The notes under the pieces are model-generated. The model searched no databases, was not told the origin of the DNA, and saw nothing but the letters and a program-made list of their open reading frames with translations. A stretch of 64,000 nucleotides of DNA, taken from IMG/VR virus record IMGVR_UViG_3300035676_000001, one strand, 5' to 3'. This DNA comes from a virus (lineage: Duplodnaviria; Caudoviricetes). Below are positions 1 through 33,268 of this stretch, piece after piece. The position numbers were made by a program, and so were the translations under genes. Position 1 is the stretch's first letter. Each line of letters starts with the position of its first letter.

Positions 1-275
1 TTACCATTCTCCAAATTACCAGACTTGATATCATCATAGAGAAGGTTCAGTTGGTCTTTCCAATCTCCATACTCCGTTTCACGATTACGGGCATAGAGGT
101 AGTAATTATAAGTTTCTACATCCTTTTGAATTTGTGCTTCTACTTCTTCCCATTCAGGTGGTTCGGATCCGTTTGGACATTCCCAACGAGTAAAAGTCCT
201 ATTATATAAGTCAAACTTGGCATCAGGACGAAGATATTTAATAGCAGTATCAACACCAGGCAAACGAATATTCAT
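1..275 (-). CDS. Tail fibre assembly chaperone-like protein (3' truncated by window edge)
   Basis: Not in track. Hand translation MNIRLPGVDTAIKYLRPDAKFDLYN...ETEYGDWKDQLNLLYDDIKSG resembles small proteins that follow fibre genes. Confidence 0.6.
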   Translation of the reverse strand, partial: MNIRLPGVDTAIKYLRPDAKFDLYNRTFTRWECPNGSEPPEWEEVEAQIQKDVETYNYYLYARNRETEYGDWKDQLNLLYDDIKSGNLENG

Positions 276-300
276 TTCAGTAGTCTCCTAATATAAGGTA

Positions 301-705
301 TTATTCAGCGGCAGGTTCTGGGGTAATGAGATCCCACTCTCCGTTCTCTTCGTCCCACTGATAACGTGAACCTGCTTCAACTTCTGCTTCGGTCAGTTCA
401 GGTGCGGGACCAACAGGTGATTCCCAGTCAGCAGTTTCGTTATTCAGAACCCAAGACTCAAAAGGCTTTGGTGCAACGAAGGCATCCAGTCCAGCATTGT
501 ATGAGTAACCAATACCAGCATAACGCTTTCTGATGCTGCTGTTATAAGAGGTCTGAACCCACTTACCACCTAAAAGTTTCTTACAGAAAGCAATACCTAG
601 AATCTCATCTTCTTGACCAGTGTGAGGATCGGTAATATCTTTGTTGTCTACTACGATGACTTGTGTGACGACGTTGTTTTCGTCAAGTTGAGCAAAATGT
701 GCCAT
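301..705 (-). CDS. Small partner protein of Gly-rich fibre (MAHFAQLD family)
   Basis: Track ORF, paralogous N-terminus to 13311..13790. Late promoter CATAAATA at 746-753. Confidence 0.75.
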   Translation of the reverse strand: MAHFAQLDENNVVTQVIVVDNKDITDPHTGQEDEILGIAFCKKLLGGKWVQTSYNSSIRKRYAGIGYSYNAGLDAFVAPKPFESWVLNNETADWESPVGPAPELTEAEVEAGSRYQWDEENGEWDLITPEPAAE

Positions 706-756
706 AAGTCTTTATTCGTGAATATAATAAATGAATGGTATGTTTTTATTTATGTA

Positions 757-3198
757 TTATGAAGGATAAGCGATGATGACGATACCGGAACCACCAGCCG
801 TAGCACCGTTACCGTTAGTAGCACCAGCATCTCTACCGCCTCCGCCGCCTCCACCAAGATTTGTAGTTCCTTTTGTTCCTATCTGTATATCATTACCACC
901 ATTTCCACCACCACCAGGACCACCGATACCAATTGATGGAACGGAAGTACCTTCTCCACATCCTCCACCTCCACCAGCATAAGTTACTGATGAACCAGAT
1001 ATTGATGATGCTTGTCCTGCCCCACCATTACCACCCCTGGTGGGTGGCGCTGCTTCACCTGCAGCAGAAGCTCCACCACCTCCCCCACCATAAAATGCAG
1101 GACCTACTTTACCATTTCCTCCATTATTGCCTTGTGGTGGTGATGTTGGTGGAGTGTTTCCAGAACCACCTAAACCAGAACCTGGAGAATTAGCACTACC
1201 TCCGCCGCCAGAACCACCAGATCTTCCATTTGATACTGATGGATTTCCAGCACCTGGTCCGCCATAACCCCCACCTCCGCCGCCGCCAGCAGATGTTATT
1301 GTAGAAAATATGGAATTAGACCCATTGGAACCAAAAGCAGTTGGACTATTTGGTCCACGAGTTCCCTCTACTCCCCCACCACCAACAGTAATTGTATAAG
1401 AACCAGGATTAGCACTTACAGGAAAACCAGAACCAGTTCTAAAACCACCAGCACCTCCTCCACCACCAGTCTGTTGTCCACCTCCACCACCACCAGCAAC
1501 TACAAGGTAATCGACAGAAGTTAAACCAGGATCAAGAACATTAAATGACGCAGATGAAGTAAAAGTATGAATAGTCTTACCACTAGCATAAGAAACTGTT
1601 CCACCAGTGGCTTTAATTGCTTGCTGTCCTATTTGGTAGCGAACGATGACGATACCGGAACCACCGGAACCACCTGTTCCATAATGAGCTCCGCCACCGC
1701 CACCACCTGTGTTTGATGAACCAGCAGATATTCCAGTAGGGAATCCTCCACCATTTCCACCACCGCCTGCTGATGGTGCTGGTCCTGGTGGTATTGGTCC
1801 TCCATTACCTGGTCCACCAATATTACCACCTCCTCCACCACCACCAGCATAAGTTGTAGAAGTTCCACTAATTGAAAATACTGCTCCCGCACCTCCAGAT
1901 CCTCCTCGCCCATTACCAAATCCTATTGGACGCCCATCAATTCCATTCGTTCCACTGCCACCAGCACCACCACCACCGCCGCCAGCTTCCCATTGTCCAG
2001 GAACGTGCTGTCCACTTCCACCATTATTTCCCTCTACAGGAGTATATCCACCACTGTTACCACTACCCCCAGGAAAAATCGCCGCAGGTCCTGGAGGAGC
2101 ACTACCACCTCCACCGCCAGAACCACCCGGAGAACCTGGATCACTATTTGAACCACCTGCTCCACCACCAGATGAAGTTATTGATCCAAATACAGAATTA
2201 CTTCCATTATTTTCTTGCGCTCCACCAGAACCAACAGTGACTGTATAAGAACCAGGAGAAGTGCTTACTGTAAATCCAATACCAGTTCTAAATCCACCAG
2301 CACCTCCACCACCACTTGAATATGCACCAGGACCAGGATTACCATTACCGCCACCGCCACCGCCACCAGCAACTACAAGATACTCAACAGTATTATTTAC
2401 TGAAGTTACGTTTAATACTGTAAAAGTTCCTGATGAAGTAAAGGTGTGTGTCTGATATAATGCTCCGCCACTATAATAATTACTAATTGTACCACCAGAT
2501 GCTTGTATGTATGAAGAAGTATTTGATGCGATCCAAGATGTTCCGTTATAAATTTCTAACTGTTGGGTTGAACTATTGTATATGATAGTTCCAGTAGCAG
2601 TTCCTACGCCAGCATTACGTCCAGTGGTCGTTGTAGCACCTAAACCAATTTGATTATTTCTTATAAAACTATCACCGACAGTGATACTTGTTGTAGCACC
2701 AACTCGAATGCCACCAGAAAACGTAGAGACACCGGAAGATTGAAGTCCTTGTGACTGTAAAACTCCAAAGACCGTTGCACCATATCCAGTGGTTTCAAAT
2801 TTTCTGGAGTTATCAAAATAGAGTTCTACTGCACCATTACCTCTAAAAATAGCACTACTTTCTCCAGAAAGACCTTGGATGTAAACATTATTACCATTAT
2901 CGGTAATGTAGAGACTTCCTGTAGTATTATTAATGTAAGTATTAGATCCATCATGATAAATTCTTAAATCATTGCCATCACCAAAATAAGCAACATCACC
3001 ATCTCCCCAATATGATGATGATCCAAAGGTAGAAACTCCAGTAACATTTAATGTTTGGGCATTTACATTTCCAAAATCACTTAATGTCAGTGAAGAAGCA
3101 TTAATACTTCCAGTGATAGTTCCAGTAGCAGTTAAGTTTTGAATTAAAACTGTTCCTGTACTTCCAATACCAGCGGCAGCAATCTTGGTAAATGCCAT
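757..3198 (-). CDS. Glycine-rich tail fibre/adhesin-like protein with two Gly-rich domains
   Basis: Fibre-type N-terminal modules, then two copies of EYLVVAGGGGGG...GGGGAGGFRTG...GGSGIVI domain, Pro-rich loops. Confidence 0.8.
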   Translation of the reverse strand: MAFTKIAAAGIGSTGTVLIQNLTATGTITGSINASSLTLSDFGNVNAQTLNVTGVSTFGSSSYWGDGDVAYFGDGNDLRIYHDGSNTYINNTTGSLYITDNGNNVYIQGLSGESSAIFRGNGAVELYFDNSRKFETTGYGATVFGVLQSQGLQSSGVSTFSGGIRVGATTSITVGDSFIRNNQIGLGATTTTGRNAGVGTATGTIIYNSSTQQLEIYNGTSWIASNTSSYIQASGGTISNYYSGGALYQTHTFTSSGTFTVLNVTSVNNTVEYLVVAGGGGGGGNGNPGPGAYSSGGGGAGGFRTGIGFTVSTSPGSYTVTVGSGGAQENNGSNSVFGSITSSGGGAGGSNSDPGSPGGSGGGGGSAPPGPAAIFPGGSGNSGGYTPVEGNNGGSGQHVPGQWEAGGGGGGAGGSGTNGIDGRPIGFGNGRGGSGGAGAVFSISGTSTTYAGGGGGGGNIGGPGNGGPIPPGPAPSAGGGGNGGGFPTGISAGSSNTGGGGGGAHYGTGGSGGSGIVIVRYQIGQQAIKATGGTVSYASGKTIHTFTSSASFNVLDPGLTSVDYLVVAGGGGGGQQTGGGGGAGGFRTGSGFPVSANPGSYTITVGGGGVEGTRGPNSPTAFGSNGSNSIFSTITSAGGGGGGGYGGPGAGNPSVSNGRSGGSGGGGSANSPGSGLGGSGNTPPTSPPQGNNGGNGKVGPAFYGGGGGGASAAGEAAPPTRGGNGGAGQASSISGSSVTYAGGGGGCGEGTSVPSIGIGGPGGGGNGGNDIQIGTKGTTNLGGGGGGGRDAGATNGNGATAGGSGIVIIAYPS

Positions 3199-3223
3199 TA
3201 TTAACCGACTACTTTTTGTTTAT

Positions 3224-3754
3224 TTATCTGACTAACATATCCCAAGAAGTTACAACACGCTCTTTGTTACTTGAGTTTGACTGTGCGTAATGTAAAAGCA
3301 CACTTGGAACGATATACATCACTCCTTCTTTCGCATCAGGAGCAAAAGCAAGTTGTGTCGTATCACTTACAGGATCGTTCCAAGGACCAACGAAGACTGT
3401 TGGTTTATGAACTTTCTCATCATACTCAACATATAAGATGCCACTGTAACCGTGACTACGATGATTATGTACAGTCTGATAATCTTCTTTCTTATATTTG
3501 ATGGTCCAGATGTCGGTGATTTGATACTCGGAAACGCCTGCTTCCTCACAGAACTTTTTCAATTCATCATTGAAGAGCATATCAAAATCCAAAGCATAAC
3601 TTTTACCGTCCTTCTGGCGGTCTGTATAAAAGTGTTGAAGACCCTTCTTTTCGAAGTTCTTTCTTTCCATCTTTTTATACAGTGCCGCCTTTTTTCTGGA
3701 CCAGTCTTCTACCTCATAACGGTAGATGGGTACGAAGAATAAAGGGTGTATCAC
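3224..3754 (-). CDS. 2OG-Fe(II) oxygenase-like protein (HxH type)
   Basis: TVHNH...YSGILYV...PSVLLHY...ERVVTSWD motif pattern. Confidence 0.7.
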   Translation of the reverse strand: MIHPLFFVPIYRYEVEDWSRKKAALYKKMERKNFEKKGLQHFYTDRQKDGKSYALDFDMLFNDELKKFCEEAGVSEYQITDIWTIKYKKEDYQTVHNHRSHGYSGILYVEYDEKVHKPTVFVGPWNDPVSDTTQLAFAPDAKEGVMYIVPSVLLHYAQSNSSNKERVVTSWDMLVR

Positions 3755-4455
3755 GGACGAACTGCGTCAAAACTACAATGTACGAATGGACCATTGGCAT
3801 CAACATAATGAAGGAACACTTGATGGTGTGTTTGTACTATTTCTTTACCTCTTATTTTTGCGACTTTCTTTTTCCACCAGGGCACTTCATCAGGCATTGC
3901 GTCTCTCCAATGTTCTCGTTCGCATCCCTTATAAACCGCAGCATCACCATTATTCATTAATACATAAGACTCGCTACCATCAGGACGCTCAAACCAAATG
4001 GGCCAAGGATTTTTAAGTGTAGTGCTAATTTGTAATGTTACACTCACTTCACACGCAGGACGATCGCTATGCCTTTTTAATACTTGTCCTGGACTATAAA
4101 ATCTGTCGTAGAAATAAGTTGGATGTAAATCCATACCAAGACGCTTTTCAATTTCCTTCTTTACAAGAAAATGAAGTTCCCGATAGATAGGAATATTATA
4201 TCTTGCCAACGAACCTGGAACTTGTTTTTCATCGGGACAGTAATCATACTTATCCATTCTATTGTTGTAGTATGTGTATTGTCCAGACTCATTTGGTCTT
4301 GGAACATACAGATTTTCAGGGTCGGCAATGAGACCTGGAATGAATAAGTATCCATTTTTCTCAAAGGACTCATTCTTTGACATCTTACGGGTCGGCATCG
4401 CACAACGCTGATACCCTTCCTCATAAACTCCGCCTGTAGACTTATATTCTTTCAT
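3751..4455 (-). CDS. 2OG-Fe(II) oxygenase
   Basis: LKRHSDRPACEVSVTL...EHWR...QVFLHY (HxD...H). Start uncertain. Confidence 0.75.
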   Translation of the reverse strand: MKEYKSTGGVYEEGYQRCAMPTRKMSKNESFEKNGYLFIPGLIADPENLYVPRPNESGQYTYYNNRMDKYDYCPDEKQVPGSLARYNIPIYRELHFLVKKEIEKRLGMDLHPTYFYDRFYSPGQVLKRHSDRPACEVSVTLQISTTLKNPWPIWFERPDGSESYVLMNNGDAAVYKGCEREHWRDAMPDEVPWWKKKVAKIRGKEIVQTHHQVFLHYVDANGPFVHCSFDAVRP

Positions 4456-4470
4456 TTCTCATACCTCCAA

Positions 4471-5088
4471 TCAGCGCCAACGTTTTCCGACTACCCAACC
4501 TACAAGGCTCTTACGCATACCAGATTTAACCTTACGAACTCGGTGAGGAGTGCGTGAGTCAAACATAATCAAAGTGCCTCTCTGTTTGGGGGCAAAGTAA
4601 GTCTTGCGACTATTGTCCATAAACTGAACTTCGCCACCAGTATAGTCTTCTGGGTCTGAGAGTTGAAGTGAGAAGGAAAGTTTTCTTACATACTCACCCT
4701 GAACCGTCATCAGGTCCTGGGCAATGTTGGTGCCTGAACTGACGATTTGTTGAGGTTTATATGAAGTGTCAATACCAGCATCAATATGCCAGTCATAAAA
4801 CTGTCCAGCACCATATTGAGTATATTGAATGCTTTCACCATCAATCGCAGTCAGGTCATACAAAAAGTTTTCTCTGTTGGTTCTCTGAATATAATGCCAG
4901 ATGAAACCACCAATCCAATGAGAAGTCGGAATCCAGGCATTCTTGCTATCACGGATGACTTTATCTACTGCGTCTCCGTGAAGTCTGGACTCTTCTGCGA
5001 TTGAGTCAAACTTCTTGATATCCTCTTCAAGAATTTCTACAATATCTTTGGGTAAATCAGTCGTGTACCACGTCGTAAGAAATGACAT
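4471..5088 (-). CDS. 2OG-Fe(II) oxygenase, prolyl-4-hydroxylase-like
   Basis: YDWHID...RKLSFSLQLSDPEDYTGGE...PHRVRKVKSGMRKSLVGW (HxD...H...R). Confidence 0.85.
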   Translation of the reverse strand: MSFLTTWYTTDLPKDIVEILEEDIKKFDSIAEESRLHGDAVDKVIRDSKNAWIPTSHWIGGFIWHYIQRTNRENFLYDLTAIDGESIQYTQYGAGQFYDWHIDAGIDTSYKPQQIVSSGTNIAQDLMTVQGEYVRKLSFSLQLSDPEDYTGGEVQFMDNSRKTYFAPKQRGTLIMFDSRTPHRVRKVKSGMRKSLVGWVVGKRWR

Positions 5089-5140
5089 ATTTTAATAATG
5101 TTTTTCATCTCATTATATATCAGGATTAAAAGGAAGTCAA

Positions 5141-6295
5141 TTATGAAGGATAAGAGATGATGACGATACCGGAACCACCGGCACCTCCGTTTCCACCACC
5201 ACCAGATCCAGCGCCGCCACCACCTCCTCTGTTTGTTGTTCCAGCAGTTCCTGGGCTAGGAGATGGCCAAGTTCCTGCACCGCCAGCACCACCACCCCCA
5301 GGTCCACCAGGAGCTATAGCTGTTGGACCTCCAGTGTGACTGGATCCACCTCCACCACCAGCATAAGTTACTGATGATCCAGAAATTGAAGAAGATTGTC
5401 CAGATCCACCAGTGCCACCCAAACTTGCATTTGTAGTTCCTCCACCAGCACCACCAGCGCCGCCGCCGCCGCCACCAGCTCTAGAAGATCCATCGCCACT
5501 ATTTCCAACTCCGCCAGGATTTCCTTGTGGTGGTGATACTGGTGGAGTGTTTCCAGTTCCAGCAGGATTATTTACACTAGATCCTCCTCCAGATCCGCCA
5601 GGATTTCCAGATCCATTACTACTACATCCATATCCACCACCCGCAGAAGTTATAGATGAAAATATAGAAGAATTCCCATTCGTAGCATTTTGTGGTGTGT
5701 CACTTGTGCTACCATTCCCACCAGCACCTACAGTGACTGAATAAGGTCCGGGAACTACAGGTAATCCAGTTCCAGTTCTAAATCCTCCAGCACCTCCACC
5801 AGCGCCAGCATTATGACCCCCACCTCCTCCACCGGCAACTACAAGATATTCAACGTCACCAGCTCCAAAATTAACAGTAAATGTACCAGAACTTGTAAAG
5901 GTGTGAATAGTTTTACCACCAGAAAAAGTAATTGTTCCGCCAGTAGCATCAAAATTACTTTTTAATGGAATCCAAGTTGAACCATTGTAAAATTCTATTT
6001 TTAAATTTGTGATATTATAAATTAAAGCTCCGATAGCAGTGCCTACACCAGCATTGCGTCCTGTGGTTGTTGTAGCACCTAAACCAATTTGATTATTTCT
6101 TATAAAACTATTGCCTACTTGAATACCACCAGAAAACGTAGAGACACCAGAAGTACTTCCAGTAATGGTTCCACTTACATTTAAAGTTCCACTTACAGTC
6201 GTGACACCTGAAAGAATGACACCAGTATCGCTGAATGTTACGGTGCTTAATCCACTTCGGTTTTGTATTTGGTTGACACGAATCTCTGATGCCAT
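5141..6295 (-). CDS. Glycine-rich tail fibre/adhesin-like protein
   Basis: Single Gly-rich domain, shares >=40 identical nt with 757..3198. TATAAATA at 6315-6322. Confidence 0.8.
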   Translation of the reverse strand: MASEIRVNQIQNRSGLSTVTFSDTGVILSGVTTVSGTLNVSGTITGSTSGVSTFSGGIQVGNSFIRNNQIGLGATTTTGRNAGVGTAIGALIYNITNLKIEFYNGSTWIPLKSNFDATGGTITFSGGKTIHTFTSSGTFTVNFGAGDVEYLVVAGGGGGGHNAGAGGGAGGFRTGTGLPVVPGPYSVTVGAGGNGSTSDTPQNATNGNSSIFSSITSAGGGYGCSSNGSGNPGGSGGGSSVNNPAGTGNTPPVSPPQGNPGGVGNSGDGSSRAGGGGGGAGGAGGGTTNASLGGTGGSGQSSSISGSSVTYAGGGGGSSHTGGPTAIAPGGPGGGGAGGAGTWPSPSPGTAGTTNRGGGGGAGSGGGGNGGAGGSGIVIISYPS

Positions 6296-6317
6296 AGTTT
6301 AGGATACTTTTGAATAT

Positions 6318-6560
6318 TTATAGACCCAGAAGTTCTTTGAGTTCTTCTATTGAGAGTCCTGCTGCCTCTAACTTTTGTTGAGGTGTTAAAGGTTCTGGTT
6401 CGGGTTCTGGGTCTGGTGGAAGAGGTTCATTACCTTCTTCTAACCAGGCAGCATACTGACGCCATTCTGGTGTACCATTATCTTCTGGAGGGAAAAGCAT
6501 AATTACTCCATCCTCCAATTCAAGTTTAATATTTCCATTATTTGTAATTTGATAAGACAT
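6318..6560 (-). CDS. Tail fibre assembly-like small protein
   Basis: WRQYAAWLEEGNEPLPPD motif. Start moved to MSYQIT just after upstream stop. Confidence 0.65.
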   Translation of the reverse strand: MSYQITNNGNIKLELEDGVIMLFPPEDNGTPEWRQYAAWLEEGNEPLPPDPEPEPEPLTPQQKLEAAGLSIEELKELLGL

Positions 6561-6564
6561 AGTT

Positions 6565-7788
6565 TTATAATTCGGCAGAACCAACAATTGATAATGATGC
6601 TAAATCAATAACTCCACTACCCCCACCAGTATATTGCAAATCTATTATAAAATGTGTTGAAGTTGCACTAGTACCATTCGCATTTAAATTAACGCCACTT
6701 GCAGACATTGTTAATATTGGAATCCTTCTCATTGGCACTGCCATTTGTCTTTGATCTCGGTCTACGTTTGCAACATACCTACGCCATGGACCATTATACA
6801 AAACTTGATAATATCTTTGACATAATGCTAATTCTTGTCCGTACAATCTTCTTTCGAAAGGTGTTGCAACAGTTCCTGGTTCTAATTGAACTCCGGTGAT
6901 ATACCAAGTAGCACCGTTAGTAGCACATAAATTTACTGATCCAGTTGATGATGTTGTATTTGTAGTGACCCAAGATCCAGCAGTTGCATTTTGATATCCT
7001 GGACCATGTTCAAATAATAATCTAAGTCCAATTCCATTATCAGTCACCCAGGTGCCAGTTGTTTCTCCCCCAATATTAATTGTCTTATATTCCCAAGTAT
7101 TTTGGGAATTAATTGTATAAGCAAATGGGAAAGAACGTGTCGTACCATTATTTTGTATACTTCCACCATGCTGCCCAATTACACTCGAACGAACCCAGAA
7201 AGATAAAGTTGCTGGTTTAGCACTAGAAGTTCCCCACGCAAAATCGGATATATTATATCCTTCAATCGGTTGCTGTAAAAATTGTTGTGGACCAGATGTG
7301 TCAGTTGCAATTACAGTAACTGCCAGAGAACTTGTAAATCCAACGGGAGCAATTCCAGACCTTTGAATAGTTCTTTTTGAAACTACATCACTATAATAAA
7401 ACCACCTATCAAGGGTATAAGTGCCTGTCTGTAAAGCGGATGTTGTTACACTTGCCCCAGAATTTCTAACATCAATCTGCATATCCCCGTTGATTATTCT
7501 ATTCCGGGCACCAGAGATGGGACCGTCATTAACAGAACCAATATAAGCAGTCGTAATACCAGCAGTCGTTACTCCTACGATACTTGTTGCTCTTAATGTA
7601 GTAACTGTAGAAACTCCACTGGAATTTACATTACCAGTTAAATTACCTGTTACATTCCCAGTGATATTTCCACTTACACTTGCACCAATAGACAGAGTAC
7701 TTCCAGCAGTAGTATAAAAGTTCAGAGAGTTACTCTGAGCCGTAATACTATTAATACCACTAATACTATTAGGTGTAATAATCGTCAT
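6565..7788 (-). CDS. Tail fibre protein with putative carbohydrate-binding domain
   Basis: ARNRIINGDMQIDVRN...LDRW...TGVQLEPGTVATPFERR...ELALCQRYY fibre-tip signature. Confidence 0.75.
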   Translation of the reverse strand: MTIITPNSISGINSITAQSNSLNFYTTAGSTLSIGASVSGNITGNVTGNLTGNVNSSGVSTVTTLRATSIVGVTTAGITTAYIGSVNDGPISGARNRIINGDMQIDVRNSGASVTTSALQTGTYTLDRWFYYSDVVSKRTIQRSGIAPVGFTSSLAVTVIATDTSGPQQFLQQPIEGYNISDFAWGTSSAKPATLSFWVRSSVIGQHGGSIQNNGTTRSFPFAYTINSQNTWEYKTINIGGETTGTWVTDNGIGLRLLFEHGPGYQNATAGSWVTTNTTSSTGSVNLCATNGATWYITGVQLEPGTVATPFERRLYGQELALCQRYYQVLYNGPWRRYVANVDRDQRQMAVPMRRIPILTMSASGVNLNANGTSATSTHFIIDLQYTGGGSGVIDLASLSIVGSAEL

Positions 7789-7815
7789 TTTATCTTTCTC
7801 CCATTCTCATATTTA

Positions 7816-9081
7816 TCAGACCACAACATAATTACCATCAATCGTCAAAACTCCAGCAATATTTACAGGTCCTGCCATCAGACCATTAAAGTTTGTTCCG
7901 ATGTAATGATTGCCGTTTAGAGTATTATCCATTATCACCATACCATTTGAAACATATAGTCCATTAAACGAGTTACCAACACCAGTAAGTCCTGATACAT
8001 CAACACTTGTAGTATTAACTCCAACAGAACTTTGAGTTGTGATACCTGCAGTATTATTTCTCCACTTAGAAGAAACAACACCAGTCAGAAGTGAACCATC
8101 GCCAACAAACTTTGATGCCGTAACAATTCCTGCTCCAACATTACCCATTGAAACAGCAGCACCAGTTAGATTGATGCTAGCAACATTAATATTATCAGCA
8201 CTATTTAAACTAACGTTACCGACACGCCCATAAAAACCAGTTACATTACTGCTTGTTGCACCAGCAAATCCAATATGGCGAACTTGAATTGCAGTTCCAT
8301 TTCCAGGAGCACTTACAAAACTTAAGACATTCTCATAAAGTGTATATGCTCTTACAGTTGTAGCATCTGAAGGATACTGAACAACACCATCAATGGTTAC
8401 AAGAATATTTTGGTTGTTTGCAGGTGTCTTGGAAAGTGTAAAGTCAGTTGTTACATTATCACCAGTGAAACTATCAACAGTGTTATCTGCAATATCAAAG
8501 GTTGGGAAATTATTTGCAACCAGATTTCCCCAGAAAACATCAGTGACTAATGGTGCTGTTGAAAATATAATGACAGAATCTACATCAATACCAAATCCAT
8601 TTGCTGGTGTCGATGTATCATTTGGTTGCTGAATAACACCATTAATTGAGATTTGAAGTTGGGCAGCACGAGTCATCTGTGCTTTGGTGCCGTTATCATA
8701 AGTTGCTTTGAATCTTGTATTAATTCCATCAAAAGCAACGTTAAATGTATGATTTGTTCCTACTCCAGGTCCAGTGATTTGTATATAAGTTCCAGACAAT
8801 GCATTGACATAACTTAATGCAAGTTGAATGCTATTCTGGTCATATTTGATAATATAATAAACACTACCTGAAATTAAGTTACCAATTGCAGTTCCAGTAG
8901 TACTATAGGTAACTCTTTGTCCAGTAACAAATCGGTGATTGTTTAATGTAATTGTATCATTAGCAAGCGAAATGATACTCGAATCACTACCATCAAACGT
9001 CAGTGTGTATGATGTGATATCGTCAAGAATCTTGAACGAATTATTTTCTCCAGTTGCGGGTTGGTTGCCAAGATAACTCAT
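7816..9081 (-). CDS. Virion structural protein (baseplate/fibre-associated)
   Basis: MSYLGNQP start, repeated VTIDGVVQYP/ISINGVIQQP beta modules. Confidence 0.7.
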   Translation of the reverse strand: MSYLGNQPATGENNSFKILDDITSYTLTFDGSDSSIISLANDTITLNNHRFVTGQRVTYSTTGTAIGNLISGSVYYIIKYDQNSIQLALSYVNALSGTYIQITGPGVGTNHTFNVAFDGINTRFKATYDNGTKAQMTRAAQLQISINGVIQQPNDTSTPANGFGIDVDSVIIFSTAPLVTDVFWGNLVANNFPTFDIADNTVDSFTGDNVTTDFTLSKTPANNQNILVTIDGVVQYPSDATTVRAYTLYENVLSFVSAPGNGTAIQVRHIGFAGATSSNVTGFYGRVGNVSLNSADNINVASINLTGAAVSMGNVGAGIVTASKFVGDGSLLTGVVSSKWRNNTAGITTQSSVGVNTTSVDVSGLTGVGNSFNGLYVSNGMVIMDNTLNGNHYIGTNFNGLMAGPVNIAGVLTIDGNYVVV

Positions 9082-9098
9082 AGGAGCTTTTTAGGTAT

Positions 9099-9500
9099 TT
9101 AGTTTGGTTTTTCTGGCCAATCAACACCAGAGATACCTAAACGACTTGTATGGTCTAGAATTGGAGTCGCAGTGTCTGGAAGGTCTCTCAATTCTTGACG
9201 ATAACTTAACTGTTCTGGTGTTGGAGTTCTATCAGGAAGAACCCACCAATCAGTTTCCGAAATGAGACGGTCTCTTTCTATACGAAGAAGTCTCATTGGT
9301 TCTGCTGATTTCAGTTCTTCTATCTTTGATTCTACTTCTTCCTTTGTGGGTTTTGGAAATTCATTATCATTATGCCAGATTAGACCTTCGTAAGTTTCTC
9401 CATTACAAGCCCAACTTGCTCCTGGTCTTAATGATAGTAAAGCTCTTTGTATATCCATTATCCTGATACCTCCATTAATGTAATAGACGATGGTGGACAT
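9099..9500 (-). CDS. Phage tail assembly chaperone-like protein
   Basis: LRIERDRLISETDWWVLPD...YRQELRDLP motif. True start probably the internal MDIQRA. Confidence 0.75.
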   Translation of the reverse strand: MSTIVYYINGGIRIMDIQRALLSLRPGASWACNGETYEGLIWHNDNEFPKPTKEEVESKIEELKSAEPMRLLRIERDRLISETDWWVLPDRTPTPEQLSYRQELRDLPDTATPILDHTSRLGISGVDWPEKPN

Positions 9501-10423
9501 CCATCATAACCAGATGCGCCACCTTGCTGCCATTGATGAGTCCTATTAATATATGCTGGACCACTACCAGTATAAGAAGATAACTGAATTTTATAAGTTG
9601 TTGCTGCTGTCGTTGATGGAGAATCCAAGTAGTTTAATGCAACTGAAGTCATATTATATCCGCGAGTTGTTGATGCATTAGAATATGTGCTTACCCAACT
9701 ACTAACTCGAAGTCTATTTCCATTTAAATCTCCAAGATATATTGCAGTAGAATCTCTAACAAGTCTAAGATTTACGCCATAATCATTATCACTACCAACC
9801 TTAGTATCAACCATTATCATAATTTTACTACTAGTGCTTCTGGGAGTAATTGTAGCACTTAAACCAGTAACGTCCGCCCATAAAAAACCTGAGGTACTAA
9901 AAGTATCAGTCTTTACTGTTTGAACGCACTGTATAATACCCCCACCACTCGCACCTGCTGGAATGCCCCCTACTGGAACTATACTGTTGGTTTGCAATGA
10001 ACCAGAGGCATAAACTGTAACAACACCGACAGTGTTTACACCTACAATACTTGTTGCTCTTAAAGTTGCAGTAGTCGTAACACCAGTAGAGTTTACATTT
10101 CCATTAAAGGTTGTAGCAGTTACAATACCGCTGATACTTGCATTTCCAGTAATTACTGCGCTCGCAGCGGTAATGGCACCAACAGTAATATTTGGAGTTC
10201 CTGAAAGACCAGTTGCGTTTCCTGTTAAGTTTCCACTGAAAGTTGTGGCAGTTACAATACCACTATTAATATTAACAGATGCTCCTACTTTAAGTGTAGA
10301 GAAAGTAGAAACTCCCGTTGAATTTACATTACCGTTTATATCGCCATCAATTCTTGTCGCAGTAACAACACCAACATTAATAGTTCCCTGAATTACATCA
10401 CCACTAACTTTGGTAAGTCCCAT
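9458..10423 (-). CDS. Tail fibre protein
   Basis: GGIIQCVQTVKTDTFS...SSITLMEVSG C-terminal fibre domain followed by chaperone. Confidence 0.75.
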   Translation of the reverse strand: MGLTKVSGDVIQGTINVGVVTATRIDGDINGNVNSTGVSTFSTLKVGASVNINSGIVTATTFSGNLTGNATGLSGTPNITVGAITAASAVITGNASISGIVTATTFNGNVNSTGVTTTATLRATSIVGVNTVGVVTVYASGSLQTNSIVPVGGIPAGASGGGIIQCVQTVKTDTFSTSGFLWADVTGLSATITPRSTSSKIMIMVDTKVGSDNDYGVNLRLVRDSTAIYLGDLNGNRLRVSSWVSTYSNASTTRGYNMTSVALNYLDSPSTTAATTYKIQLSSYTGSGPAYINRTHQWQQGGASGYDGCPPSSITLMEVSG

Positions 10424-10424
10424 A

Positions 10425-10751
10425 TCAGGTCATCTCCAACAGAGTGACTGCTACATCAAGACTTGCAGTTACATCACTTTTTGCAGTGATGCTATCGCTT
10501 GGCTCTAGCACAATTTTATTACCTTGCATAACCTCAAGAGATGATCCTTGAGGAATTGGCACGTTTCTCAATATACTTACATCATCTGCAAGAGTTCTGG
10601 CAATTCCTACAGTTACATTAATTCCAGACCCACTAATGTTTGCTAGTGTAATCCCAATAATTGTCGAAGTTGCATTTAAGGGCGCAGTATAAATGCCAAC
10701 ACTTGTAACTCCAACGTTTGCTTTAGTTGCTAGTTTAAACGTATTTGCCAT
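10425..10751 (-). CDS. Small virion structural protein
   Basis: MANTFKL...GNKIVLEPSD...LLEMT, paralog of 21381..21719. Confidence 0.7.
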   Translation of the reverse strand: MANTFKLATKANVGVTSVGIYTAPLNATSTIIGITLANISGSGINVTVGIARTLADDVSILRNVPIPQGSSLEVMQGNKIVLEPSDSITAKSDVTASLDVAVTLLEMT

Positions 10752-10756
10752 TTATA

Positions 10757-11866
10757 CTATCCGAATACGATTGAATAAATCAAAGCGTCATCCAAAACGC
10801 TTCTGCCGCTGACTCTATAAGCTCCTGTGATATTTATATCCCCAACAGCATCTACCTTATAAGATGGTTGAGTACTTCCTAAACCGATATTTCCAGTTGA
10901 TGGTCTGAAAACAAAACTGTTTGTTCCAGTCGTTGCAATTCCGACCGAACTTACCCCAGTGTTATTTGCAAAAGTTGGAAATACAATATCAGTTGCAATC
11001 GGTTGATTTATAACCGAAAAAGCACTTACACCAAAAAGATTAGAACCATCACCATAATAAACAACTGTCGTAACTCCAGGATTTGCAGAAGTTACAATAC
11101 CAGATGTCGTAATCCTAACCTGACCAATTGTGGTGACACCAGTAATTCTAACTCTTTCAAGTTCTGTGTCACCAATAACATCAAAATCGGATCTTGGATA
11201 TTGAGTATTAATACCAAGATTTCCACTTGTTACATCATACCAAACTTGATTTGTTCCAGAAAATATACCGACACTATTAAATTGTAACTGACCACTTAAT
11301 CCTGCAGCGTTGGTTACGATTCCAATTCCACCCGCGCTTGTCCAAACAATATTTGCACCGTTTGAACTTAAAACATAACCAGAGTTTCCAGCACTATTAG
11401 TAGAATCATAAATTCCACCACGAACTCTTAAATTACCAAAGACATCTAATCTTTGAGTTGGTCCTGTTGTCCCAATACCCAAGAATCCAAAGTTTGGTAT
11501 ATAAGCAACTTGTGTGCTTGCAATTCCTACAGAAGTTACACCAATGTTTGATGCAAATGTTGGATAAACTGGATTAGAATTTAATGGTTGCCCAACAACA
11601 TTAAAGGCATTAACGCCAATTAGATTTGATCCATCACCATAATATTTGACAGTTGTTACACCAGGATTATTTGCAGTTACAATTCCTGCGCTTGTAATCT
11701 TTAGTTCTCCGATGATTGCATCAGAAACTACGTGAAGTTTTGCCTGGGGATTTGTGGTTCCTATACCTACAGAGGGAGCTGCTGTAGTTGCAATACCAAT
11801 GTTTCCATTGATATCATTAACTATCGTAAACGACCCTAGTTGCGATAGCTCCCTATTATTTGCCAT
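10757..11866 (-). CDS. Tail fibre-like structural protein
   Basis: Repeated VGIGTTNP and YYGDGSNL modules. Confidence 0.7.
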   Translation of the reverse strand: MANNRELSQLGSFTIVNDINGNIGIATTAAPSVGIGTTNPQAKLHVVSDAIIGELKITSAGIVTANNPGVTTVKYYGDGSNLIGVNAFNVVGQPLNSNPVYPTFASNIGVTSVGIASTQVAYIPNFGFLGIGTTGPTQRLDVFGNLRVRGGIYDSTNSAGNSGYVLSSNGANIVWTSAGGIGIVTNAAGLSGQLQFNSVGIFSGTNQVWYDVTSGNLGINTQYPRSDFDVIGDTELERVRITGVTTIGQVRITTSGIVTSANPGVTTVVYYGDGSNLFGVSAFSVINQPIATDIVFPTFANNTGVSSVGIATTGTNSFVFRPSTGNIGLGSTQPSYKVDAVGDINITGAYRVSGRSVLDDALIYSIVFG

Positions 11867-11908
11867 CAGATATTAAACTTTGTAGTTATTTATTAGGGTT
11901 GTAAAACG

Positions 11909-12637
11909 TCACTCTATAATTTTTTTTAATTTCTGAAAACTACTACCAACCCAAGAAACTATACTGTTGATTTCATTATCAAACATAATCAAATCATCTT
12001 CAACGATTCCATAAGATGGATATAAGGTTTTTACTTCTCCCAAATGAGGAATCACTGCTTCATTAATTGAGCTTTCTTTCCCAAGAAGACCAAATGATTT
12101 CACATAGAAATTGGAAAGGTCAAAGTTTTTTACTCGGTCAATTTCAAAGTAATCACAAACAATATCCATAGTTTCTTTCTTGCTACTCAAAAAAGAATTT
12201 GTTTCTATCCATAAGATATCGGGAGTCTCACTTATCCATTGAATGATATTCAACCATATAAAAGCAATTTTTTCTAAATCAGTATGAAACTGATATTCTT
12301 TTAATGATGGATGGCAATGATGTAGATGATACTCATACTTTGTAGATACTATATTATCAGTATAATTTGATGTCTTAATCTTATATAAATGATGCTTTAG
12401 TTTCCTATACAAGAATACTTTTTTTCCAGAAAGATGTCCAGAATAGTGGCATAAGGAACTTTGAAACTTTATAACTGTATTGTTAGTTAATTCTTCAACA
12501 AGTTTATCATTCTGTATGAGATTATAAATCCAAGATGGTTCGGCATACACAATTGTGGAATTTGCCAGTAATGTTGCCATTAAAGTTGAACCACAATGAG
12601 AGGTATGATATATTTGATGAATATTAGTTTTGCTCAT
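11909..12637 (-). CDS. Sulfotransferase-like protein
   Basis: N-terminal IYHTSHCGSTL resembles the PAPS 5'-phosphosulfate-binding loop. Confidence 0.55.
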   Translation of the reverse strand: MSKTNIHQIYHTSHCGSTLMATLLANSTIVYAEPSWIYNLIQNDKLVEELTNNTVIKFQSSLCHYSGHLSGKKVFLYRKLKHHLYKIKTSNYTDNIVSTKYEYHLHHCHPSLKEYQFHTDLEKIAFIWLNIIQWISETPDILWIETNSFLSSKKETMDIVCDYFEIDRVKNFDLSNFYVKSFGLLGKESSINEAVIPHLGEVKTLYPSYGIVEDDLIMFDNEINSIVSWVGSSFQKLKKIIE

Positions 12638-13277
12638 TTGTTCTTATACCATCATTGTGTATTCCAAAAAAGTGAGATATGCAATATCTTCCATAACCAG
12701 AATAATAATCAGTATCTTCTATTGATACATTTTTAACTCCGTGTTCAACATATGATGGTAATAGAATTAAACTATTATTCATACACTGAAACTCATAATC
12801 ACCATACTCTGGAAAATAAAGTTCTCCGCCAGAAAACTTTCTTGGTTCTTTGTGAAAGTAACTAAACGCTAAAAAGTCGTGTCTGATATCAGTATGTGGT
12901 TCGTAATAATCGCCATTGTGATAATATCTTGCTTTTGTTATACAATAATTGGAGTGTAGAATTTTTTTATTTTGAGGAAACTTATCATAAAAAATATTCA
13001 AAAATCCGTGATTGAATAATTTTTGTGTGACGGTTATGATATTAGAAAGATTTTTATCCGCATATGCAACATCCAGTTGTAAAGATCTGGATTTTGTCAT
13101 ATATTCTTGTTTTTCAAAATTCCAAGCCCCGTGATTATGTCCAGGGTCATATAATTTTCCAGGTTTGGTTAGAAACTTTAATTCTTCCCAAATTAATTCT
13201 AGTTCTTCTTCAGTATAAAAATTCTCAATGATTAAATGTGGGAATGGATCCTTTAGAATATTAATTCTTCTTTCCAT
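12624..13277 (-). CDS. 2OG-Fe(II) oxygenase, prolyl-4-hydroxylase-like
   Basis: YEPHTD...FSGGELYF...VEHGVKNV...GRYCIS. Confidence 0.8.
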   Translation of the reverse strand: MERRINILKDPFPHLIIENFYTEEELELIWEELKFLTKPGKLYDPGHNHGAWNFEKQEYMTKSRSLQLDVAYADKNLSNIITVTQKLFNHGFLNIFYDKFPQNKKILHSNYCITKARYYHNGDYYEPHTDIRHDFLAFSYFHKEPRKFSGGELYFPEYGDYEFQCMNNSLILLPSYVEHGVKNVSIEDTDYYSGYGRYCISHFFGIHNDGIRTNEQN

Positions 13278-13310
13278 AATATATCATCTATTCAAATCAT
13301 TATAATGTTT

Positions 13311-13790
13311 TTAATACCTTCTGTCAAATTCTGGTTGCTCCATATTAAGAGTCCAGAATCTTTCACCTTCTGATCCTTCAACTTGTCTCCAATTTGAAAT
13401 AGATTCATCCCATTCGTATTGATAAGTATCCCAAGGCTTTGGAAATGGTGGTCTCCATTTTAATCTATCTGGATCATACCACCAAAGTGAATATGGTTGT
13501 GGAGGAATAGGAGGTAAAAATCTTTTATATTCTTCATTATATGAATAACCATCAGGAACAAATGCATCATACTGTTCATCATAAGTATCTCCTATCGCAG
13601 CATACTTATATCTAAATTTGTTATTATAAGATGTTTGTACCCAGTTTTTATCTTGACCATATAAGTTTTTACAAAACTGAATACCTACTTCTTCGGATTC
13701 ATTTCCATTTTCATCAAGAATATCATCATTTGAAATGACAATAACTTGCGTTACTACATTATTTTGATCTAGTTCTGCGAAATGTGCCAT
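13311..13790 (-). CDS. Small partner protein of Gly-rich fibre (MAHFAELD family)
   Basis: Paralog of 301..705, directly downstream of a Gly-rich gene. Confidence 0.75.
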   Translation of the reverse strand: MAHFAELDQNNVVTQVIVISNDDILDENGNESEEVGIQFCKNLYGQDKNWVQTSYNNKFRYKYAAIGDTYDEQYDAFVPDGYSYNEEYKRFLPPIPPQPYSLWWYDPDRLKWRPPFPKPWDTYQYEWDESISNWRQVEGSEGERFWTLNMEQPEFDRRY

Positions 13791-13798
13791 TGTTATTA

Positions 13799-14674
13799 TT
13801 AATTTACAGTAAAGGTTCCACCAGCGGTAAAGTCGTGAATCACATAATCGGTTCCAGAAACATTTGCGGTGGTAATTGTTCCACCAGTTGCTTTTGTAGT
13901 TGTCCCAGCATATCTTACGATGACTCTTCCAGATCCTCCTGATGCGGTAGCTCCATTAGTATTAGAATTTCTGGCACCACCACCTGTATTAGCAGCAGGT
14001 GAACTGGTCGTTGATCCATCACCATTAAGACCAATTAAAGCACCTCCACTAGTATTGCCAGATCCGGCACCACCTCCACCAAATGCAACTGTCGAAGAAC
14101 TACCGCCTCTAAAAGTTGCTAAATTATATCCTGAACCTCCGGCACCGCCTGCTCCAACACCAGTACTTGGACTTGTTCCAGCAGATCCAGCACTACCTTT
14201 TCCTCCTCCACCACCTGCACTAAAATTTGGAGAGGTTCCAGTAGACCCACCACCAGAATTACCCTGCCCTGATGTTCCACTTCCTCCCCCTCCTCCACTT
14301 CTTCCCCCACCGCCAGATCCACCAGATAATCCAGATATGGCTCCAGGTGCTGCACCAGAACCACCTCCACCACCAACAGCATTAGTAGCACCCGTAAATG
14401 AAGTTACACCTCCATTAGCACTTCCACTTCCTCCTCCACCAATTGTTACAGTAGAATTAGTTCCAGGATTTAAAGTTGCTGAGTAAATATATAACCCACC
14501 AGCACCTCCTCCACCTCCACCATAGCGAAAACTACTAAACCAACTATCATCACCGCCGGCGCCGACCTGCCCGAACGCAGACAAAGCTCCTCCACCGCCT
14601 GCCATCATAAGGACTTCAACCGATACTGGTGATGTGGTGACTGTTGTTACAAAAAAGTTTTGAAGTATAGACAT
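13799..14674 (-). CDS. Glycine-rich domain protein
   Basis: VEVLMMAGGGG...GGGGAGG...GGSGRVIVRY domain. Confidence 0.75.
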   Translation of the reverse strand: MSILQNFFVTTVTTSPVSVEVLMMAGGGGALSAFGQVGAGGDDSWFSSFRYGGGGGGAGGLYIYSATLNPGTNSTVTIGGGGSGSANGGVTSFTGATNAVGGGGGSGAAPGAISGLSGGSGGGGRSGGGGGSGTSGQGNSGGGSTGTSPNFSAGGGGGKGSAGSAGTSPSTGVGAGGAGGSGYNLATFRGGSSSTVAFGGGGAGSGNTSGGALIGLNGDGSTTSSPAANTGGGARNSNTNGATASGGSGRVIVRYAGTTTKATGGTITTANVSGTDYVIHDFTAGGTFTVN

Positions 14675-14675
14675 A

Positions 14676-24586: not shown

Positions 24587-24721
24587 TTAAGATCCTCCCT
24601 GTGAATAAACAGGTTGCAAAATTCCTCCATCTTGGTCATCGTCATCATCATGATTCTCAGTGAAAATAACGATAGCAGCGAATACAAAGATAACCAAGTA
24701 TAGAAGGTATTGTGTGGTCAC
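24587..24721 (-). CDS. Small membrane protein with acidic tract
   Basis: Hand translation [47 protein letters not shown] start overlapping the psbD stop. Confidence 0.55.
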
Positions 24722-28390: not shown

Positions 28391-28401
28391 TTTAACCTCC
28401 A

Positions 28402-28521
28402 TCAGAACACACCAGGAATGATTTGTCCAGTGACCAGATACGAACCAGCAGCAGCAACGAATCCAATCATCGCAGCCCAACCATTAATGCGTTCTGCTTT
28501 TTCAGTAAAAATTTTGTTCAT
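28402..28521 (-). CDS. hli: High-light inducible protein
   Basis: Not in track. MNKIFTEKAERINGWAAMIGFVAAAGSYLVTGQIIPGVF (ExxNGxxAMxG). Confidence 0.9.
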   Translation of the reverse strand: MNKIFTEKAERINGWAAMIGFVAAAGSYLVTGQIIPGVF

Positions 28522-33229: not shown

Positions 33230-33268
33230 AGGTGATATAATATATAAATCTGATGTTGAATTAAAAAA

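Follow-up and report, generated by a model that had tools for sequence, protein, structure and literature searches.

In the cyanobacterial phage Pam3, the fibre protein gp24 carries a glycine-rich lattice domain that its published description identifies as the distal, receptor-recognising end of the fibre, and a small downstream gene encodes a chaperone, gp25, with an N-terminal beta-sandwich (PDB 7YPX; PMC9608196). In phages T2 and S16, a fibre shaft (gp37) is followed by a separate short gene for a glycine-rich cap (gp38; PDB 6F45), whose receptor-binding domain is of the polyglycine-II (PGII) type. A glycine-rich protein is also found in the tail tip of mycobacteriophage Bxb1, a siphovirus of an actinobacterium (PDB 9D93, chains Qa/Qb). 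Here we describe a tail-fibre locus in a 64,000-nucleotide stretch of viral DNA (IMG/VR record IMGVR_UViG_3300035676_000001, hereafter called the window), in which genes for glycine-rich fibre-tip proteins (G) and their small MAHFA partners (P) adjoin four genes of the 2-oxoglutarate (2OG)-Fe(II) oxygenase type (Oa, Ob, Oc and Od) and a sulfotransferase-like gene (S). The region is part of a host-recognition (tail-fibre) module with two copies of a modular cassette. Enzymatic modification of the fibre is the leading and most economical explanation of this arrangement, and judging from gene linkage we assign it a probability of roughly 45%.

The fibre and chaperone part of the cassette adds a member, or a variant, to the Pam3 gp24-gp25 type. 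The two share a glycine-rich lattice tip, a small gene directly downstream and a cyanobacterial host, and the N-terminal beta-sandwich modelled for the downstream product shows some resemblance to that of gp25 (Z 5.5, 58 residues). It differs in several respects. P has no sequence similarity to gp25 or to the Tfa families, has Trp/Pro-rich beta-hairpin repeats instead of the helical domain of gp25, and possesses an extremely conserved N-terminal domain. The G proteins have N-terminal parts other than that of gp24, and G813 has two tip domains. The results section of the Pam3 fibre paper mentions no oxygenase or sulfotransferase gene as adjoining the fibre genes (PMC9608196). The gp37-gp38 system resembles the locus in its shaft followed by a separate short glycine-rich cap gene, but gp38 is a distant structural match only, the lattice of the G proteins is larger and the attachment domain is different; the gp37-gp38 system has neither a dedicated downstream partner nor linked enzymes.

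For the enzymes, Iyer, Abhiman, de Souza and Aravind (2010; PMC2938197) read the dioxygenase-halogenase array of cyanophages Syn9 and Syn10 as serving secondary-metabolite synthesis and did not tie it to fibre genes. The array resembles the window in its tandem, distantly related 2OG-Fe(II) dioxygenases in T4-like cyanophages, but the window has no halogenase or JmjC member and its arrays are short (three genes in one, one gene plus the sulfotransferase-like gene in the other) and flanked by fibre-tip genes. For certain bacterial operons that encode a dioxygenase and a sulfotransferase, the same study predicted that tail-collar or glycine-rich collagen-like proteins from the same operon are first hydroxylated and afterwards sulfated (PMC2938197). 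These operons combine, as does the window, an oxygenase, a sulfotransferase and a phage-fibre-like or glycine-rich presumed substrate, and the proposed logic is the same. They use, however, beta-hydroxylase/PhyH-family oxygenases and often a 3'-phosphoadenosine-5'-phosphosulfate (PAPS) synthetase, whereas PF13640/PF13759 enzymes and a divergent sulfotransferase occur here, and their substrates are cellular rather than virion proteins. For cyanophage oxygenases, Sullivan et al. (PMC3037559) proposed DNA repair or roles linked to 2OG and NtcA. The host recognition cluster of Zaragoza-Solas et al. (2020; PMC7029224) is a hypervariable island in the structural region of cyano- and pelagimyophages, with tail-fibre genes next to glycosyltransferases and further enzymes, to which the fibres and the 12-kb glycan operon of the window correspond; that study treats the island as a whole, without the G-P cassette, the oxygenase-sulfotransferase pair or microsynteny. 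Our literature search found no experimental test of the bacterial operons or of the phage system, no paper linking phage oxygenases or sulfotransferases to fibre-tip genes, and no report of hydroxylated or sulfated phage fibres, including fibres with hydroxyproline. New here are the structural identification of G and P, the Od-S module (with an adenosine-5'-phosphosulfate (APS) kinase), a microsynteny quantified in both directions, and the caveats that arise from promoters and block conservation.

Linkage of the enzyme genes to fibre-tip genes

To quantify the arrangement, loci from viral and metagenome contigs (L-numbered below where one must be singled out) were scored with profiles built from the window proteins, 80 of them anchored on the partner and 55 on the PF13759 oxygenase; the scoring covered these enzyme families only. 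In the partner-anchored loci, 36 of the 38 oxygenase or sulfotransferase-like genes lay at most two genes from a G or P gene, compared with 291 of 1335 other genes (odds ratio 65, p 3e-21). A preliminary description of this DNA, made from the sequence alone, had named neighbourhood enrichment beforehand as a check on its proposal of a modification system for receptor-binding appendages, and the enrichment proved strong. Approached from the oxygenases, a G or P gene was present within two genes of an oxygenase in 26 of 55 loci, and G, P and a run of one or more oxygenases was the usual order. With a median of only 2 nt between the first oxygenase and the preceding gene, most first oxygenases would be co-transcribed with G and P. 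Because the cassette arrangement recurs across many unrelated viral contigs, it goes beyond chance.

One form of the arrangement embeds an enzyme within the structural genes. In 14 partner-anchored loci, a four-gene unit consists of G, a protein of about 84 aa of the phrog_9114 type, Oa and P, so that the oxygenase is located between the fibre gene and the gene of the presumed chaperone. The same unit is present in the complete 61.5-kb genome of phage DSL-LC04, where G has 561 aa and the small protein 94 aa. Homologues of the phrog_9114 type, 84-122 aa in length, are found between a glycine-rich gene and an oxygenase or partner in L020, L027, L054, L080, L083, L156, L006 and L086. In the cultured phages S-RSM4 and S-SSM5, dioxygenase arrays directly follow the P gene.

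The Od-S pair shows a linkage of its own. Od directly precedes an S-like gene in every distinct context examined, and the two genes mostly overlap. L004, L162 and L163, whose S protein is only 33-61% identical, have the genes in the same succession of fibre, G, P, Od and S. In L001, the pair is located beside RCC1-repeat propeller proteins. In L162, RCC1 propeller repeats and a Gly_rich_2 domain are fused in one 688-aa protein (L162:3743-5809), behind which come an 84-aa MAHFA gene, Od and S; this fusion ties the RCC1 proteins and the Gly_rich_2 proteins to one adhesin class.

Fibre tips, partners and enzymes

The preliminary description had recognised three genes with glycine-rich domains, and all three products match phrog_2295. 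Relative to the gathering cut-off of PF21722 (Gly_rich_2; 24.3 bits), G813 and G384 score above and G291 just below (bit scores in Table 1). The match of G813 falls into two stretches that correspond to two copies of the domain; glycine makes up 30% of this protein and 32% of G291. An alignment of G291 with 35 family members from viral contigs extends over the full length of the protein and reveals a well-conserved common scaffold: VEYLVVAGGGGGG, YTVTVGAGG, GGSGGGG, GTxGQGN, NTGGGGGG and GGSGxVIIRY. An AlphaFold2 model of G291 was obtained with a predicted local distance difference test score (pLDDT) of 88 and a predicted template-modelling score of 0.87, and its glycine-rich core is almost devoid of regular secondary structure according to DSSP. 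Exhaustive structural comparison of the model identified the Bxb1 tail tip as the best match (9d93_Qa; Z 11.9, root-mean-square deviation (rmsd) 3.7 A over 175 residues, 33% identity), followed by Pam3 fibre gp24 (7ypx_A; Z 10.7, rmsd 3.1 A over 161 residues, 27% identity). The next matches, at Z 3-5, were PGII antifreeze proteins of springtails and snow fleas and the glycine-rich domain of ALK (Z 4-5), and gp38 of phages PP01 and S16 (Z 3.0). Consistent with this, the best match of the G-family profile in the whole PDB was 7ypx_A (E 0.014), in an alignment that brings the first and the last motif into register, while a direct sequence search of the PDB with G384 yielded no match. Foldseek searches with the G291 and P159 models returned nothing that reached E 0.001, and re-scoring with VIA-align gave usable scores.

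Homology and fold thus show the G proteins to be fibre tips, with a distal domain modelled as a lattice of PGII-like strands that has the fold of the Pam3 gp24 and Bxb1 tail tips. The earlier comparison with gp38 of the T4 family was right in kind, with Pam3 gp24 rather than gp38 as the closer solved relative. The prediction that the G proteins form distal receptor-binding fibre ends is supported by this homology and by the fibre shaft genes upstream. G291 itself lacks a fibre shaft, and only 1 nt separates the start of its gene from the stop codon of the 517-aa fibre gene; the order of a long fibre gene and a short glycine-rich gene of about 290 aa is also found in L004, L162 and L163. By analogy with gp37-gp38 of T2 and S16, G291 is a separate cap protein behind the 517-aa shaft.

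P134 (134 aa, beginning MAHFAQLD) and P159 (159 aa, MAHFAELD), which had been described as paralogs, are 46% identical and both belong to phrog_7759 (E 5e-42 and 6e-35). The family is very large, with over 3888 clusters when grouped at 90% identity. Conservation is very strong in the N-terminal 80 residues, about 17 positions being invariant, and M1, A2, H3, F4, E31, E33, Q52, S54, Y55 and R60 are invariant in 20 sequences; such strictness of an N-terminus (Met-Ala-His-Phe plus Glu31, Glu33, Gln52, Ser54, Tyr55 and Arg60) is unusual for a chaperone. The C-terminus consists of one or two Trp/Pro-rich repeats, and some members are limited to the N-terminal domain (84 aa). No match to P was found in Pfam or NCBIfam, its only PHROG matches are families with no assigned function, and a profile search of the PDB gave no relevant match. 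In the AlphaFold2 model of P159 (pLDDT 88), a small beta-sandwich with two helices is followed by beta-hairpins. Residues 1-93 of the model match the Pam3 chaperone gp25 (7ypx_a; Z 5.5, rmsd 2.6 A) over 58 residues that are exactly the fibre-binding N-terminal domain of gp25, at a level (Z below 8) where a chance arrangement can account for the resemblance. The tail-fibre assembly protein Tfa of phage Mu matches at Z 2.6, and among the 88 top chains proposed by Foldseek for P159, only Pam3 gp25 and Mu Tfa reach Z 2 or more.

The position of the P genes agrees with a partnership that had been described as dedicated. A glycine-rich gene is directly upstream in 44 of 80 cases and within three genes in 69 of 80, with a median gap of 8 nt (viral contigs), and the dedicated partnership of P with G is supported. 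The P family occurs in the cultured cyanomyoviruses S-RSM4, S-SSM5, P-RSM4, S-CAM8 and Bellamy, and its range extends to podoviruses and other SAR11 phages, to roseophages and to one actinobacterial phage; the G-P pair as such is present in phages that infect cyanobacteria, SAR11 and roseobacters, among them myo- and podophages as well as other types. In close relatives, P134 is 89-96% identical, even where the preceding glycine-rich gene differs. Prediction of a G291-P159 complex gave scores of 0.02, 0.80 and 0.02 against a mark of 0.32, which counts neither way on binding. Since the consistent position behind G and the fold match agree, P is most likely a fibre-tip chaperone. In L161, a 57-kb metagenome contig from ENA, small genes (101 and 103 aa) behind glycine-rich genes begin with MAKKALVS and have a similar Trp-rich C-terminus; they may constitute a second partner family.

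We next consider the oxygenase-type genes, for which the cut-offs of PF13640 and PF13759 are both 27 bits. Oc lies above the PF13640 cut-off and Od marginally below, but Od falls into one alignment with Oc-type proteins. The iron triad HxD...H and the basic residue that binds 2OG (H101, D103, H182 and R192 in Oc numbering) are invariant in 17 sequences, the corresponding H, D, H and R of Od included. Characterised members of PF13640 are protein prolyl hydroxylases. The nearest solved relatives of Oc are the PKHD-type hydroxylases Sbal_3634 and PiuC (E 9e-5), for which, to our knowledge, no substrate has been described. Oa scores above the PF13759 cut-off, has invariant H96, H98, H155 and R166, and its family profile matches the uncharacterised structures 2rg4 and 3bvc (E 2e-12); we know of no function for this family. 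Ob has no Pfam match. Conserved RHxDR...EHWR motifs, cross-matches to oxygenase PHROGs and a weak hhalign match to the PF13640 set (E 0.002, probability 13%) with the metal motifs (HxD...H) in register make Ob a probable oxygenase. It corresponds to T4-GC615, labelled 'Hyp. with ferrochelatase domain' in an earlier survey (PMC3037559); in view of the HxD...H motifs and the oxygenase cross-matches, we rejected the ferrochelatase label of this gene (3751-4455) as a historical annotation. None of the four enzymes matches the AlkB family, and DNA repair of the AlkB type was set aside. Of the three different oxygenases that had been proposed to follow G384, Oc and Oa are therefore borne out by Pfam and Ob is probable only, while the oxygenase behind the MAHFAELD partner is confirmed in Od; two of the enzymes (Oc and Od) belong to the prolyl 4-hydroxylase (P4H)-like family, as had been suggested, with iron- and 2OG-binding residues intact. 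PHROG places the enzyme families in its category 'moron, auxiliary metabolic gene and host takeover'. The deposited annotations of marine phage S-SSM5 at 34202-38267 (L159) locate a partner homologue (T4-GC616) within a run of genes for a 2OG oxygenase, a 'ferrochelatase'-labelled protein, a TPR protein, two PhyH-domain proteins and a 'leprecan-like' protein of the prolyl 3-hydroxylase family.

S is a probable divergent sulfotransferase, a conclusion drawn from agreeing but individually weak lines of evidence together with gene context in L161. A direct sequence search of the PDB with S gave noise only. Among 22 relatives of S, four match PF00685 (best E 2.8e-6) and one matches PF13469. All four PDB matches of the S family profile are cytosolic sulfotransferases (E 0.02-0.6), and the language-model neighbours of S are Sulfotransfer_3 clusters. 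An HTSHCGSTL loop is invariant throughout the family, and an FLYRKL...K segment is kept as well; we take these to resemble the two PAPS-binding motifs, the 5'-phosphosulfate loop and the 3'-phosphate motif. In L161, a 137-aa APS-kinase-like gene (L161:7723-8136) with a PF01583 match directly follows the S homologue and is wedged before an oxygenase gene; because the two genes abut, the sulfotransferase reading gains independent support, and the earlier recognition of a sulfotransferase-like gene stands as a remote relationship that this neighbour strengthens. The island in L161 interleaves three G-like genes, at least two and probably three oxygenase genes, three S-like genes and the one APS-kinase-like gene. 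In L001, a canonical PF00685/PF13469 gene is located in the same island as the Od-S pair. No gene of the APS-kinase type was found in the cassette of the window itself.

Proposed fibre modification and competing explanations

As part of a chaperone, the N-terminal beta-sandwich of P would grip the glycine-rich domain or an adjacent one during folding, like the 'tentacle' domain of Pam3 gp25, and its Trp/Pro-rich C-terminal hairpins would take the place of the helical trimerisation domain of a classical Tfa. The oxygenases would hydroxylate side chains of the fibre tip in the cytoplasm; proline is a possible target, and Asn, Asp and Lys are equally so. The Od-S pair would then turn the hydroxyl into a sulfate ester with PAPS. 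Such a modification would give the receptor-binding surface a different charge and shape, or make the tip more stable. Given that the enzyme blocks have sigma70-type promoters of their own, the enzymes would be present before the late fibre genes are expressed. In its full form, the proposal is that aquatic phages of several families hydroxylate and O-sulfate PGII fibre tips, with the MAHFA chaperone holding the unfolded tip for the enzymes, and that host range is tuned in this way, through a new class of post-translational changes to virion proteins; we advance this version more tentatively than fibre modification as such, and rate it somewhat doubtful.

A number of observations weigh against the modification reading. 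Firstly, both enzyme blocks open with their own consensus sigma70-type promoter, and G384 with a late-type motif. The -35 hexamer of the promoter at 13327-13299 lies within the last codons of P159, and the promoter is located 22 nt ahead of the start codon of Od; it is kept in L163 (12/12 positions) and L006 (11/12) and is absent from L004 and L162, where a short P gene overlaps the oxygenase gene. The promoter at 5140-5112 is located 23 nt ahead of Oc, and relatives keep the promoter-like TGGTATAAT at the same position. GATAAATA is found 21 nt upstream of the G813 start. The late motif TATAAATA is no more frequent in the whole window than expected by chance (6 found, 5.3 expected), and only its placement before G384 is suggestive. 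Sigma70-type promoters in T4-like cyanophages are usually taken as early. The motifs indicate that the enzymes may be made before the fibres, an order that is compatible with tailoring and also fits accessory 'moron' genes, and the enzymes may be early moron genes with another target. An 11/12 match to a sigma70-type promoter (TTTACA-16-TATAAT), possibly due to chance, was also noted at 7252-7279 on the minus strand inside the 407-aa fibre gene 6565-7788.

Secondly, the Oc-Ob-Oa block is 81-99% identical in close relatives, where the flanking fibre genes have been replaced by genes of 41-60% identity and different sizes that are sometimes not glycine-rich; this conservation fits a self-contained accessory block as well as a general tailoring block. 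Thirdly, the linkage is incomplete. About half of the oxygenase-anchored loci have no nearby G or P, though many of these loci are short. Enzymes are found within three genes in only 25 of 77 P loci and about two thirds have none; a T7-like pelagiphage carries G-P without any oxygenase. With many G-P pairs free of enzymes, the enzymes are not needed for folding. In addition, as this window and related phages supplied the seeds of the profiles, the scored loci are not independent. Regarding the proteins themselves, S has no direct Pfam match, and its P-loop-like motif reads HCGST, in which His-Cys replaces the usual basic residue (Lys/Arg) before S/T-G. The Z score of 5.5 between P and gp25 is within the range of chance fold resemblance and not decisive alone, and P has no helical C-terminal trimerisation domain of the Tfa kind, only beta-hairpins being present after residue 44 of the model.

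As for proline as the modified residue, the glycine-rich proteins flanking the oxygenase trio had been described as rich in Pro-containing loops, in contrast to G291, and the quoted loops (PPGPAPS, TPPVSPPQGNPG and WPSPSPG) are all present; proline counts are 37 in G813 (4.6%), 19 in G384 (4.9%) and 6 in G291 (2.1%). Across the loci, G proteins with nearby enzymes contain 4.0% proline and those without 2.8% (raw p 1.7e-5). This association is not significant after phylogenetic pairing, for which there were only four independent pairs, and the collagen-type X-Pro-Gly context is not over-represented. We therefore set aside proline as the sole marked residue; the raw enrichment agrees with the earlier proposal, and a link between proline and the oxygenases is only suggestive.

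The close relatives in which the fibre genes have been exchanged form a series of their own. In the IMG/VR contigs L086-L096, where Oa is 95-98% identical, the fibre genes are swapped wholesale, with G699-G731 in place of G384 and G534 or genes that are not glycine-rich in place of G813. Extra genes of 215-245 aa are located within or beside the Oc-Ob-Oa block in L086, L087, L088 and L092. These contigs give a clear view of cassette shuffling in a host recognition cluster.

Among the competing explanations, one accepts the fibre tip and its chaperone as real and gives the enzymes a different target. Expressed early, the oxygenases and the sulfotransferase would modify a precursor of the host envelope or a host protein and thereby block superinfection or re-adsorption of progeny, for example by sulfation of lipopolysaccharide or another glycan or by hydroxylation of a surface or translation protein, and their adjacency to receptor-binding genes would be explained by the need to match the same receptor. 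The llp gene of T5, which is located beside oad, offers a parallel for a host-remodelling gene next to a receptor-binding gene. The sigma70-type promoters ahead of both enzyme blocks (for Od kept in L163 and L006), as opposed to the late-type motif before G384, agree with this explanation, as do the PHROG category of the enzymes, the conservation of the enzyme block while the fibres are swapped, and the 12-kb fucose-type glycan operon of the window, such genes being typical of the host recognition cluster (PMC7029224). However, most phages have no separate promoter ahead of the first oxygenase, which starts a median of 2 nt behind G or P, the unit of G, 84-aa protein, Oa and P embeds the oxygenase between a structural gene and a chaperone gene, and neither envelope-targeting features nor information on a host target were found. 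We consider remodelling of the host improbable, if deserving of attention.

It appears equally improbable that small molecules, nucleic acids or the 2OG pool are the targets of the oxygenases, in secondary metabolism, DNA repair or nitrogen-status signalling, and that the enzyme genes merely accumulate in a hypervariable host-recognition island. The published readings of cyanophage 2OG oxygenases are of this kind (DNA repair and 2OG/NtcA modulation, PMC3037559; secondary metabolites for the Syn9 array, PMC2938197), and the host recognition cluster is a non-syntenic island in which fibre genes stand among unrelated ones (PMC7029224). Two further observations point in the same direction: about half of the oxygenase-anchored loci have oxygenase arrays but neither G nor P, and the nearest solved relatives (PiuC/YbiX type, 2rg4 and 3bvc) have no known protein substrate. 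The microsynteny, by contrast, is far tighter than co-residence in an island, since almost all enzyme genes in the partner-anchored loci are within two genes of G or P and genes overlap. Moreover, the cassette recurs in small genomes and contigs (DSL-LC04 and contigs of 30-60 kb), the Od-S pair follows different adhesin types, and the AlkB family, as noted, is not represented among the four enzymes.

The least likely alternative concerns P alone, which would be a structural component of the tip, or else the actual substrate or an adaptor that brings fibre and enzymes together, rather than a chaperone: thousands of sequences share the N-terminus and about 17 positions without variation, whereas the Pam3 paper calls the fibre-binding N-terminal domain of Tfa-type chaperones non-conserved (PMC9608196), the helical trimerisation domain is missing and oxygenase genes often directly follow or precede P, but the position directly behind the fibre gene and the fold match to two fibre chaperones fit a chaperone, and P is a small protein without fibre-like repeats. 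As a whole, then, the preliminary interpretation of a modification system acting on receptor-binding fibre tips is supported in part.

The surrounding locus and the meaning of the cassette

The source of the window is a T4-like cyanophage. Its GC content varies between 32% and 47%, it contains psbA/psbD-type genes, and the closest isolate is Synechococcus phage S-SRM01 (84.7% identity), which aligns only over 10172-11894 and thus outside the cassette genes. All genes in 1-20449 are on the minus strand, and those named in the preliminary description were recovered at their positions. In the region 1-16229 (minus strand), the PF21722 glycine-rich genes number three (813, 384 and 291 aa); the region also holds both MAHFA paralogs, the four genes of the oxygenase type and the single, divergent sulfotransferase-like gene (Table 1).

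Table 1. Genes and promoter motifs of the tail-fibre region, listed in the direction of transcription
Feature	Position	Strand	Match or remark
1394-aa fibre	16265-20449	-	
517-aa fibre shaft	14676-16229	-	phrog_8745 tail fiber protein, E 4e-26
G291, predicted stand-alone glycine-rich fibre-tip protein	13799-14674	-	PF21722 22.2 bits; phrog_2295
P159, MAHFAELD partner	13311-13790	-	phrog_7759
Sigma70-type promoter motif TTGACA-17-TATAAT	13299-13327	-	perfect consensus
Od, 217-aa P4H-like 2OG-Fe(II) oxygenase	12624-13277	-	PF13640 26.2 bits; phrog_61, E 1e-14
S, 242-aa divergent sulfotransferase-like protein	11909-12637	-	remote evidence only; 14-nt overlap with Od
Seven fibre-type or small fibre-module genes	6318-11866	-	
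T4-type late promoter motif TATAAATA	6315-6322	-	20 nt before G384 start codon
G384, N-terminal fibre segment and one glycine-rich tip domain	5141-6295	-	PF21722 78.1 bits; phrog_2295, E 2e-70
Sigma70-type promoter motif TTGACT-17-TATAAT	5112-5140	-	directly 3' of G384 stop codon
Oc, 205-aa P4H-like 2OG-Fe(II) oxygenase	4471-5088	-	PF13640 56.7 bits
Ob, 234-aa probable double-stranded beta-helix oxygenase	3751-4455	-	phrog_2954, E 1e-56
Oa, 176-aa PF13759-type oxygenase	3224-3754	-	PF13759 38.8 bits; phrog_81, E 7e-31
G813, fibre protein with two tandem glycine-rich tip domains	757-3198	-	PF21722 110.3 bits; phrog_2295, E 2e-112
P134, MAHFAQLD partner paralog	301-705	-	phrog_7759
Small conserved fibre-module protein, cut by window edge	3-275	-	phrog_9114, E 3e-12

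Among the genes between the two cassette copies, a 133-aa gene (9099-9500) overlaps the end of the 321-aa fibre gene 9458-10423 and matches the tail fiber assembly family phrog_4912; its product ends in ...DWPEKPN, a classical Tfa-like ending. With this Tfa-like gene, the probable fibre chaperones of the window are of at least two kinds. Between the fibre module and a glycan operon, two photosystem II reaction-centre genes (psbD/psbA type) and a peroxiredoxin gene are located at 24718-25779, 26375-27457 and 27863-28480. The glycan operon, of the fucose type and about 12 kb in length, occupies 29170-41228 on the minus strand with one plus-strand gene (33269-33949). It comprises GT25, two GT11, GT7C-like, GT10 fucosyltransferase-like, GT2 and FUT8-like genes together with genes for a nucleoside triphosphate-transferase/kinase fusion, a SIS isomerase, an epimerase/reductase and a GDP-mannose 4,6-dehydratase. 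The phage probably makes GDP-fucose and builds a fucosylated glycan, which could bear on the idea, also raised in the preliminary description, that fibres are glycosylated.

2OG-Fe(II) oxygenases are among the commonest unexplained genes of marine and freshwater cyanophages. For the published ideas on their role (DNA repair, 2-oxoglutarate signalling and secondary metabolites), our literature search found no experimental support. The present analysis ties these enzymes to a widespread three-part unit that consists of a tip with a solved fold, a probable chaperone family with thousands of unannotated members, and the enzymes between or behind them. The unit provides a testable substrate hypothesis, and the cultured phages DSL-LC04, S-RSM4 and S-SSM5 carry it. 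Should modification be refuted, the annotation of the MAHFA proteins as chaperone candidates and the link between PF21722 and Pam3 gp24 would stay useful. If the modification of fibre tips is true, it would give the abundant 2OG oxygenases of cyanophages, and by extension the halogenases linked to them, a substrate, and the enzymatic editing of receptor-binding tips would represent a new layer both of host-range determination and of phage fibre engineering.

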